A stretch of DNA of 64,000 nt from assembly GCF_044704955.1 (NCBI RefSeq), contig NC_091980.1, positions 130,386,001 to 130,450,000 of the forward strand. Direction: 5' to 3'. Each line of letters begins with the position of its first letter. The first letter of the stretch is position 1. The notes under the pieces were generated by a model, which worked only from the letters and a program-made list of their open reading frames with translations, searched no databases and was not told the DNA's origin. Below, in pieces: positions 2,638 to 61,957 of the stretch. Both the position numbers and the translations under genes were made by a program. Origin of the DNA: Pristiophorus japonicus. Lineage: Eukaryota.

Positions 2638-5600
2638 TCCTTCTACTTTGACCGGGATGATGTTGCCCTGCGTCACTTTGCTGAGTTCTTCAAGGAGCAG
2701 TCACATGAGGAACGTGAGCATGCTGAGAAACTGATGGAATTCCAGAATCGGCGTGGAGGCCGAATCATCTTGGCAGACATCAAGGTTTGGCTCCATAAAC
2801 GAGGGCCCTTCTGTTTGGCTTCCCTTAGACTGATTGTTCACAATACATTGTAAAGGAGTTGGTTCCAATTCCACAGGAACCAGCAATTTGGACAAACTGG
2901 TCCATGCTGGTGATCAGGCTCCAGATGTCGTCCTCCCACCTTGCTTTATCCAGCAACATGTCGTTCTAATCCTTTTTCCCTCATGTACTTATTTAGCTTC
3001 CCCTCAAATACATCTATGCTGTTCACCTCATAAATTTGACACCGTTAGTTGACTTAATGCAGTAATTCAATATTCTAACATATTGGTTCATGGTAACCTA
3101 AACTTCTGATTTCATTTTTTCATCCCTAATTTCCTTCAATACTGTCCTATTTACAAATGTGTTTTTACTGTTTGTACTATTACATATGTGCCACCAGAGG
3201 GCACTGCAGTCAGACTTGCAGGTTACCTGTACAGGTGCGCCAGGCGCAGTACAGAAGGCAGGTCACCAGGTGTGATCCTCACCACCTCGAGTTCCATTAA
3301 ATAAAGTCCTGTCCCCTCAGTACAGATTCACATGAGGCATGTAGTGAAGTCAAGGTCACTCTGGACCTACACCTTTATTTCAAGCTCTGGAATGCTGCAC
3401 TTGCCTGAGACCTGTCCTTGTATACCTGTCTCTTGCAAGTGCATCACTGGTGGTAAGGTATGCTGGTGGTTACAGGTCAATCTTATTCGTCATGTATAGT
3501 ATGTTATATATAATCACCCTCCCCCCAAGGTCTTGTTGTCTTTATAGGTTCAGTCTCAGGTGGTCTGTGCTCTAGCATGGAGCGTCTGAGTTGTGGTTCA
3601 GTTGTTTGCCTTGGTGTCTGTTTTTCTTTGGGTGTGGTTGCTGGTATTTTGCCTGGGCTGTCTGTTGCGATTGCCCTTTCCTCAGGTTGTTCTCTCCATC
3701 TGTCCATCAGTTGTGATGCGAGTTCCACATTGTAGTCTGCCCCTCTGGTTCCACAGTGTTGTTGGTAAATCTAATTTTGACTTGGCCTACATGCCTCTGG
3801 CAGGTTTTGCCATTGTCCATTTGTACTACCAGTAGCCTGTTTCCTTCCTTGCCCGGTACTGTCCCTGCAAGCCATTTGGGACCCCTGCCATAGTTTAGTA
3901 CAAACACTTTGTCCCCTATCTCATTCCATCTCCCCCTCGAATTTCTGTCATGCTATTCAATCAGCTTATGGCGCTTTGCCTCAACGATTTCATGCATGTC
4001 TGGGAGGATTAATGAGTGCCTTGTTTTTAAAGTCTTTAACATCAACAGTTGCACAGGGGGATCCCAGTCAATGAGTGCGGACGAGATCTGTATGCCAGCA
4101 GCAGTCGCGACAGGTGATCCTGTAGCATGCGACCTTGTATTTTAAGCATGCCTTGTTTAATGATTTGCACTCCTCTCTCCGCCTGGCTGTTGGAGGCCGG
4201 CTTGATGTGATTTATGCCATGGTCAATTAAAAAATCTTGGAATTCTGTGCTGGTGAAGCACGGACCATTGTCACTGACCAATATGTCAGGGATTCCGTGC
4301 ATTGCAAACGTAGTTGCAAGGTTCTCCAGTGGTGAAGGTTCTCCAGTGGTCGATGTGCACCCGCGACCACAGTTTGGTAGGCCAGGGCCCAGGGGCTCAG
4401 GAGACCCTCCCTGGGGGCATTGCTGAGCTGGGCACAAATGGTGCACCTTCGTACGCAGAGCTCCAAGTCCGCGTCAACACCAGGCCACCAGATGTGGGAT
4501 CTGGCTATGGCCTTCATAATGATCCCCGGGTGCTCGCAGTGGAGCTCCCAGACAAATGCCTCTCTGCCTCGCAGAGGCATGTCTACTCGGCTGCCCCACA
4601 TCAGGCAGTCTGCTTGTAGTGATAGCTCATGCATGCGCCTGTGAAAGGGTTTAATTCCTCGGGGCAGTCATCGCGAGCCAGTCACCAGTTAGGACACATC
4701 TTTTTACGAAGGATAGTGTGGGGTCGCTGGCCGTCCAGGCTCTGATTTGGCGAACCTGTGGACTCCAAAGCATTGATTGCCATGACTATCTTCGTCCTCG
4801 TCATCAGACCCTTCCGTGGTCACCAGGGGTAGCCTGCTGATCGCGTCGGCACAGTTGTCTGTGTGCCTTATGGTATAGTCGTACGACGCCAGCATGAGTG
4901 CCCACTGTTGAATTCTCACTGGGGCGTTAGCGTTTATTGCCTTGCTCTTGGATGTGAGGGGCTTGTGGTCGGTTTCTAACACTAACTTCGCTCCGAAAAG
5001 GTATAGTGCATCTTTTTGACACTGTACACGCACGCGAGCGCCTCCTTCTCTACCATTCTGTACCCGCGCTCCGCACGCGAAAGTGACCTGGAGGCATAAG
5101 CTATGGGTTGTAATTTGCCCGCACTATTGACATGTTGCAAAATGCACCCGACCCCATACGCTGACTCATCGCATGTGAGAACTAGCTTTTTAAATGGATC
5201 AAAGACTCAAAACACTGTTGGAACACAGAAGGTTGTGTGCCTTTATTGAAGGTGCATCCCTGCCACCCCCAAAACCAATCACACCCCTTCCTGAGTAGCA
5301 CATGGAGAAGCTCCAGCAGCGTGCTCAAGTTCTGCATAAAGTTCCCAAAATAATTGAGTAGCCTGAGAAAGGCGTGCAGTTCTGGGGCCTGGGTGCCAGG
5401 CGAATTGCTTCTGTTTTGGACACTATTGGGCAGATTCCATCAGTGGCAAACCTTCTGCCCAAAAATTCAACCACTGGTGCGAGAAACAGGCACTTTGATT
5501 TCTTGACTCATAGGCAGACCTGATCCAACCGCTTTCGTACTTCCTCCAAATTATGGAGATGGGAGTCGGTGTCCCTGCCCGTGATGAGTATGTCGTCTTG

Positions 5601-61700: not shown

Positions 61701-61957
61701 ACCTCCAGTTCAAGAGGATTAAAATCCAAACTCTTGATGGGTAAGCTCTGATATTCATTGATATCTGCTCCTGGTCACAACTAGTTTCCCTCTTCTCCTG
61801 CAGTTGTGACTTCCTGGAGACCCACTACTTGGATGAACAAGTGAAGATGATCAAGAAGCTTGGAGATCACATCACCAACCTGAAGAGACTGGGAGCCCCT
61901 GAAAATGGCCTGGGGAAGTACCTGTTTGATAAGCACATGCTAGGGATGAGCGGTTGA
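58743..61957 (+). pseudogene. Ferritin copy F (divergent type), unprocessed pseudogene; exons 58743-58835, 60760-60906, 61314-61439, 61804-61957
   Basis: 9-nt in-frame deletion in exon 1 (MASQNYH). E104>A followed by TAG at 61377-61379. 2-nt deletion at the start of exon 4 (TTGTGAC, giving TGA at 61807-61809). TATA decayed to TGTAAAG. Confidence 0.92.
59100..59790 (-). mobile_element. Decayed CR1 3' fragment(s) in intron 1 of F
   Basis: Similar to the 25810-26450 part of the intact CR1 (GGTAGAGAATTCCA, GGAGACCAGCACTGTACACAATACT, ACCATTTGCTTTC). Confidence 0.7.

Follow-up and report, generated by a model that had tools for sequence, protein, structure and literature searches.

A tandem array of intron-containing ferritin genes in Pristiophorus japonicus belongs to a separate ferritin clade of cartilaginous fishes

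In the openly accessible literature, a large ferritin cluster of sharks is reported in a single source, a preprint on the Greenland shark (10.1101/2024.09.09.611499), and neither iron-responsive element (IRE) loss nor the NCOA4 site is described in the accessible text. The preprint counts 155 'FTL' and 179 'FTH1' copies, with three clusters syntenic with the white shark, describes ancient clusters of more than 100 copies, kept across 250 million years, and finds the largest to be ovary-specific. Like the array described here, the Greenland and white shark clusters are large, ancient and tandem, with mostly full-length copies. Since white shark proteins fall into the family defined below, the Greenland shark cluster is very probably the same system, a link made via the white shark, there being no Greenland shark protein among our matches. 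Array and ovary expression are already in print and the array is not lineage-specific. According to the preprint, at least 90% of amino acids are the same as in human, which disagrees with the 70% identity between our family and a primate H chain. The preprint uses FTL and FTH1 labels and, in its accessible parts, is silent on IRE, promoter, residues and turnover, whereas here the copies form a clade of their own, with no IRE found and with diagnostic residues.

Several other systems can be compared from the accessible text of the papers cited here. Teleost and amphibian M ferritin shares with the shark genes four exons, a length of 176 amino acids and the combination of a ferroxidase centre with L-like nucleation carboxylates (PMC4117605). 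All five salmon H and M genes carry IREs, whereas none was found for the shark family, in which Arg23 and Ala144/Ser/Asp are moreover replaced (PMC4117605). A tandem, dosage-type expansion of a fish ferritin is also known from the hadal snailfish, where 14 recent copies of fthl27 are highly expressed in most tissues and are connected with oxidative stress (PMC10746142). By comparison, the shark family is older, larger and reported to be ovary-specific.

FTHL17 is intronless and the yolk ferritin of snails is secreted; the shark genes keep three introns and the ferroxidase ligands, and the proteins have no signal peptide. Mammalian FTHL17 and X-linked FTHL genes resemble the shark genes in being multi-copy and germline-biased, with homogenised copies and pseudogenes, whereas FTHL17 is testis-biased and the human protein is without ferroxidase activity (PMC5363321). 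The yolk ferritins of Schistosoma and Lymnaea are female-specific egg ferritins, and schistosome ferritin mRNAs are stated to be without an IRE (cited in PMC1488847); these proteins are from invertebrates and, in the text available, are not known as large arrays. Any likeness of the shark family to them would be convergent.

Organisation and decay of the array

The window analysed is a stretch of 64,000 nucleotides of Pristiophorus japonicus DNA (contig NC_091980.1, positions 130,386,001 to 130,450,000). On its forward strand exons 2, 3 and 4 of a ferritin gene occur six times each and exon 1 five times, which gives six same-strand four-exon genes:

2638..8452, + strand: copy A (A-type); exon 2 2638-2784, exon 3 7862-7987, exon 4 8297-8452; exon 1 upstream of the window; AATAAA at 8568
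13532..16136, + strand: copy B (B-type), intact, 176 aa; exons 13532-13633, 15069-15215, 15460-15585, 15981-16136
23828..32800, + strand: copy C (A-type), intact, 176 aa; exons 23828-23929, 31453-31599, 32211-32336, 32645-32800
37823..40373, + strand: copy D (B-type), broken; exons 37823-37924, 39348-39494, 39721-39846, 40218-40373
50410..54703, + strand: copy E (A-type), pseudogene; exons 50410-50511, 53369-53515, 54105-54230, 54547-54703
58743..61957, + strand: copy F (third type), pseudogene; exons 58743-58835, 60760-60906, 61314-61439, 61804-61957

This number and the order A-type, B-type, A-type, B-type, A-type, F had been proposed in an earlier note on this DNA, and exons as well as intron and flank identity agree with it. 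Splice sites are canonical in all copies with the sole exception of the intron-1 donor of D, which reads AT. The four-exon, three-intron layout is that of vertebrate ferritins as described in the accessible text of PMC4117605. Positions 1-1689 match intron 1 of C at 90%; thus the window begins within an A-type intron 1 and the array extends upstream, as the note had also read it. Intron and flank distances amount to 0.05-0.22 among the A-type copies (A, C, E) and to 0.04-0.11 between the B-type copies B and D, whose 3' UTRs however differ by 0.25. Between A-type and B-type copies they are 0.24-0.44, and F represents a third type. Within the array a long block recurs:

7748..16991, + strand: two-gene block comprising the 3' half of an A-type gene and a whole B-type gene; partner at 32093-41208, 24.3 kb away, 94% alike over substitutions

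This match indicates one full duplication of the A+B pair, as a unit measuring about 24 kb, which upholds the two-gene module of the note; the third unit has the A-type half alone (E), followed by F. The long repeated blocks differ at 6-11% of sites and each unit carries private insertions: A has an LTR element in its intron 2, C has a LINE in its intron 1, and a further LTR element precedes E. The units are therefore paralogues and not haplotypes, in line with the note's argument that such insertions make mis-joined haplotypes unlikely. The insertions are:

3302..7745, - strand: LTR-retrotransposon-like insertion in intron 2 of A, 4.4 kb; terminal repeats 93% alike, coding part decayed
25784..30517, - strand: LINE in intron 1 of C, antisense; no copy at the same site in A or E
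43924..46767, strand unassigned: second LTR element, lying between D and E; its ends are TG...CA and its terminal repeats 96.6% alike; none in the other units

The first of these is missing from intron 2 of C, and its two residual ORFs gave no Pfam match. The two open frames of the LINE encode a 316-aa GDSL esterase and a 1002-aa protein with endonuclease and reverse transcriptase, and its 5' end carries an 83-bp tandem repeat of 6.6 copies; with both frames open it looks young. At its insertion site about 10 bases of the empty site are absent and no target duplication is evident. Another decayed LTR element, 68% related to the one at 43924-46767, begins at 62950-64000, and the array may or may not go on past there. 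A 33-bp minisatellite follows a CA repeat about 3.1-3.3 kb 3' of each A-type gene (11570-11813, 35928-36141 and 57851-58112 for A, C and E).

Three copies are without lesion (B, C and A, the exon 1 of which is upstream of the window) and three are broken (D, E and F). Copy A has an open frame over exons 2-4, in which 141 of 142 residues match entry P0008. Copies B and C are identical over 176/176 residues to the P. japonicus UniRef entries P0259 and P0010, respectively, in agreement with the note's assignment of the DNA to a cartilaginous fish. Copy C has the poly(A) signal AATAAG, the R63C replacement and the LINE. In D, besides the AT donor, the poly(A) hexamer is gone and CpG transitions make up 8 of the 22 differences. 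Copy E contains three stops, a 1-nt insertion close to its stop and a damaged TATA. Copy F shows a 9-nt in-frame deletion in exon 1, a stop in exon 3 after a changed Glu107 and the loss of 2 nt where exon 4 begins, and its TATA and poly(A) signals are damaged. All lesions listed in the note (weak poly(A) and LINE in C, dead donor in D, three stops in E, stop and frameshift in F) were found again. Its claim that decay rises from left to right does not hold, as the order is non-monotonic, with more coding lesions in E than in F. Nor is the gradient statistically significant: three broken copies at one end of six have a chance of 0.05 one-sided and 0.10 two-sided, with exon 1 of A lying outside the window.

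The intact copies are under purifying selection, with dN/dS values of 0.20 (A-B), 0.16 (A-C) and 0.16 (B-C) compared with 0.24-0.67 for pairs that include a broken copy, all from 138 codons and hence noisy. Exon dS between A-type and B-type copies is 0.11-0.20, low against the flank distances of 0.24-0.48, which hints at conversion or constraint; a windowed scan along the A-type/B-type comparison gave no clear conversion tract.

A separate ferritin clade: residues of the family and promoters of the array

Among database proteins at least 82 distinct P. japonicus entries, which may include isoforms, are of the array type. Both B and C match the ferritin domain (Pfam PF00210, E 4e-38). Relatives are present in Heptranchias, Heterodontus, two Scyliorhinus species, Carcharodon, Cetorhinus, Mustelus, several carpet sharks, Pristis and Callorhinchus. 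The search for copies in other sharks, rays and chimaeras, which the earlier note had suggested, thus places the family in sharks, a ray (Pristis) and a chimaera (Callorhinchus). Where the note had supposed a lineage-specific dosage or tissue-specific cluster, tissue-specific dosage is in keeping with the ovary specificity of the Greenland shark preprint, whereas lineage specificity fails on this distribution. Three vertebrate-like ferritins filed under bacterial names (P0095, P0101, P0164) are from contigs shorter than 1 kb and are probably contamination.

The nearest neighbour of a family member is from the same species or group for 65/65 P. japonicus, 20/20 Heptranchias and 29/29 pooled carpet shark proteins, compared with only 0/6 in Cetorhinus and 1/5 in Carcharodon. 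The mostly within-species or within-group pattern is as steady turnover predicts, and together with the three broken copies out of six in the window it bears out the birth-and-death evolution proposed earlier. At least five of nine B-type residues are found, among the sequences compared, only in P. japonicus proteins (14/65); within this set the B subtype and the A+B module look species-restricted.

To place the family, a corrected tree of 50 rows was used (the earlier 69 rows minus 20, plus one fish M row; no FTL included). In this tree the family members group together (99/92), with a single chimaera gene as their sister (100/98). Outside this group fall the H chains (98/98), among them those of chimaera and skate, a single-copy gene of sharks and rays (100/98) and tetrapod M. 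The tree with vertebrate H and M ferritins that the note had called for thus gives the copies a clade of their own, separate from H and from the single-copy shark gene. In the earlier 69-row tree, M-like rows of tetrapods and lungfish had joined the family (97/84), a grouping without clear support in the corrected tree. In an AU test, a single clade of family plus H was not rejected (p 0.33). The window contains no flanking genes by which to compare the locus. The single-copy M-like gene and family members lie on contigs of equal length, apparently the same one, in S. canicula, S. torazame, Heterodontus, Chiloscyllium plagiosum and Pristis, which suggests that the family originated at the locus of this gene; apparently on the same chromosome, the single-copy gene itself is without expansion.

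For residue counts, 243 proteins of 165-200 aa (of 330) were sorted by best identity to one reference per group into 145 family, 39 H, 29 M and 16 single-copy members, with 14 unassigned proteins excluded; among the H proteins is one fish row grouped with M in the tree, and among the single-copy proteins one bacterium-labelled entry resembling shark contamination. Glu27, Tyr34, Glu62, His65, Glu107, Gln141, Asp131 and Glu134 are each present in 139-143 of the 145 family members, and all six ferroxidase-site residues are intact in 127/145 and in 60/65 of the P. japonicus proteins. Among the nucleation carboxylates Glu57 is found in 137/145 and Glu64 in 140/145, with Glu61 likewise counted as M-like. 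The family has the ferroxidase centre and L-like nucleation carboxylates of an M chain and lacks the 5' IRE of one. An L chain (FTL) was ruled out by the ferroxidase residues (Glu27, Glu62, His65, Glu107 and Gln141) and an H chain (FTH1) by the tree, in which the H clade (98/98) excludes the family, by the missing 5' IRE and by the absence of Arg23 from all 145 proteins. Database labels of the copies (H, 'oocyte isoform', middle, FTL and FTH1) thus cover what is, by sequence, one clade.

Seven alignment columns are near-fixed in the family and rare in the other groups. Three of them are Ser30 (143/145), Met106 (143/145) and Met144 (141/145), which in a structure model with four helices (11-38, 43-72, 93-120 and 124-154; mean pLDDT 80) are one helical turn from, or adjoin, the ligands Glu27, Glu107 and Gln141; from this placement, they may lower ferroxidase activity. 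The B subtype has Cys30 and Trp80. Arg63, altered in copies C and D, reads Cys, Trp or Gln in 29/145 family entries and is likely a CpG hot spot. Such Arg63 changes may flag dying copies among annotated genes.

At position 23 (numbering with Met1), another of the seven columns, no family member has Arg; Lys is found in 138, Gln in 5 and Glu in 2 of the 145, compared with Arg23 kept in 81/84 other vertebrate ferritins and in 38/39 H chains. Position 19 is Asp instead of Ala in 115/145. These counts go back to one or two changes in an ancestor instead of 145 events. According to the accessible text of PMC11076521 and PMC4592949, human FTH1 no longer binds NCOA4 with R23A or A19Y but keeps 86% in pull-downs with R23L. 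As R23L retains this much binding, Lys23 may well still bind NCOA4.

The copies with an exon 1 in the window share a compact promoter, here given for B:

13356..13463, + strand: promoter of B; reverse CCAAT (ATTGG) at -176, -146 and -119 and TATA at -77 from the ATG

C, D, E and F are laid out alike, with CCAAT boxes about 30 nt apart and TATA 77-84 nt before the ATG; the elements are intact in B, C and D and damaged in E and F. Repeated CCAAT/Y-box layouts are typical of oocyte and cell-cycle promoters. Going by the TATA position, the 5' UTR would be about 50 nt long. An Rfam search of the 64-kb window, covering the full upstream spacers of B-F, returned no IRE at gathering score nor at E up to 10, and a motif scan of 400 nt before the five ATGs found no paired CAGWGH loop. 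Nine Rfam matches in the window at E up to 10 were below gathering score and are taken as chance. In a control scan IRE_I was recovered at 46-53 bits in 4/15 loci, these being all 4/4 fish-type ferritin transcripts (3 H, 1 M); the fish M transcript (L004) scored 46 bits.

Possible role in the ovary and alternative explanations

The predominant transcript of the primary-growth ovary in coho salmon is a ferritin (PMC2262088), and the ovaries of salmon and zebrafish are rich in ferritin transcripts (PMC2262088, PMC1488847), as stated in the accessible parts of these papers. In sharks the lymphomyeloid epigonal organ encloses the ovary (PMC5568229, accessible text), so that 'ovary' need not mean oocyte. 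In a sequencing run from a related organism, putatively of RNA (X5), exons are joined to one another and the bins that contain exons are deeply covered, which indicates that the family is spliced somewhere. In a putative DNA run (X3) one exon 1-exon 2 joint was seen, with 23926 joined to 31452; it may stem from a processed retrocopy, which would fit germline expression.

We consider it probable, if not strongly so, that this family of sharks, a ray and a chimaera, without an IRE and with its ferroxidase residues kept, supplies oocytes with bulk ferritin, predicted to be made independently of iron level and to store iron for the yolk-fed embryo. Copies arise by tandem duplication, including that of the A+B block, and die by stops, splice loss and transposon insertion, with the intact ones held by the purifying selection seen above. 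The compact promoter with three CCAAT boxes and TATA, present in many copies, could drive bulk transcription in the ovary, as expression in another shark suggests. Lacking an IRE, output would be set by copy number and transcription and not by IRP binding. The residues (ferroxidase ligands, Glu57, Glu61 and Glu64, no signal peptide) predict a cytosolic 24-mer with M-like chemistry, and such cages would take up iron during the long growth of the oocyte and pass it to the embryo. More speculatively, the changed NCOA4 cleft might slow ferritinophagy so that the store persists. A further-reaching version, which we regard as conceivable though doubtful, is that a third kind of cytosolic ferritin arose in cartilaginous fishes more than 400 million years ago, was cut off from the IRE and NCOA4 controls, the latter by a remodelled cleft resisting ferritinophagy (Arg23 is Lys even in the chimaera gene; to this come Asp19 and, for the B subtype, Cys30 and Trp80), and was amplified to at least 100 copies. 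It would then serve as a locked maternal iron bank for huge, slow-grown eggs, convergent with invertebrate yolk ferritins.

Other explanations put the ovary signal or the copy number down to different causes. The proteins could be immune or antioxidant ferritins of the epigonal cells around the ovary, withholding iron from microbes or limiting oxidative damage. Ovary samples include epigonal tissue (PMC5568229), tandem fthl27 copies of the hadal snailfish lower reactive oxygen in cells (PMC10746142), and loss of the IRE would also suit a transcription-driven stress gene. We find this unlikely given the ovary specificity in the preprint and the fish ovarian follicles rich in ferritin transcripts, each as far as the sources are accessible (10.1101/2024.09.09.611499; PMC2262088, PMC1488847). 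An egg-abundant protein might equally be mainly a structural or protein reserve or a low-activity cage instead of an active iron store. Met144, Ser30 and Met106 beside the iron ligands would suit this, as would the human germline FTHL17 without ferroxidase activity (cited in PMC5363321). We hold it to be just as unlikely as the epigonal origin, because at least 139/145 proteins retain all first-shell ligands together with Asp131 and Glu134 of the three-fold channel, for which an inactive protein would have no use. Against an epigonal origin also stand the CCAAT/Y-box repeats, which are of the kind typical of oocyte and cell-cycle promoters.

Copy number could also be largely neutral churn in a recombination-prone, transposon-rich region, with few copies that matter and dosage unselected. 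Half of the six copies are broken, the intact B and C are changed at conserved sites (R63C, Y30C or H, R80W) and the spacers are filled with transposons. Large arrays nevertheless persist in many shark lineages and, according to the accessible text of 10.1101/2024.09.09.611499, across 250 million years. The low dN/dS among intact copies (0.16-0.20) and the unexpanded single-copy gene on the same chromosome also speak against churn, which thus appears improbable too. Finally, the units could be mis-joined haplotypes of fewer genes. Of the words sampled from the B region, the best public DNA runs contain a share of 0.39-0.41. No RNA run was among those listed, with shares of 0.41 or less. In the four runs compared with 13300-33200 (X3, X5, X6 and X7) no single piece reaches across, so that they give the arrangement no independent confirmation; low cover of exon 1 in X6 and X7 was given no weight. 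Such an assembly artefact is nonetheless highly implausible: the repeated blocks are 6-11% divergent, far above allelic levels, each unit has its private insertions, and A-type and B-type flanks differ by 0.24-0.48.

The array itself being known, what is added here to the openly accessible literature is a separate IRE-less ferritin lineage that forms one clade, with a changed NCOA4 site and retained ferroxidase ligands, and the promoter layout of the array copies. If the oocyte iron store is real, a vertebrate ferritin without IRE control and with an altered ferritinophagy site would show by what means big, yolk-rich eggs build up iron when the customary feedback is missing. Annotation of the copies as H, 'oocyte isoform', middle, FTL or FTH1 is to be corrected to one clade, and claims on longevity drawn from the ferritin copy number of a shark should allow for an expansion common to many sharks. 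The family also provides a natural panel of variants for the NCOA4 interface and the second shell of the ferroxidase site. The chimaera sister gene (P0097, Callorhinchus) has Ala at Gln141, Cys at Arg63 and Lys for Arg23; with the first two of these changes, its product may be a weak or inactive ferroxidase.
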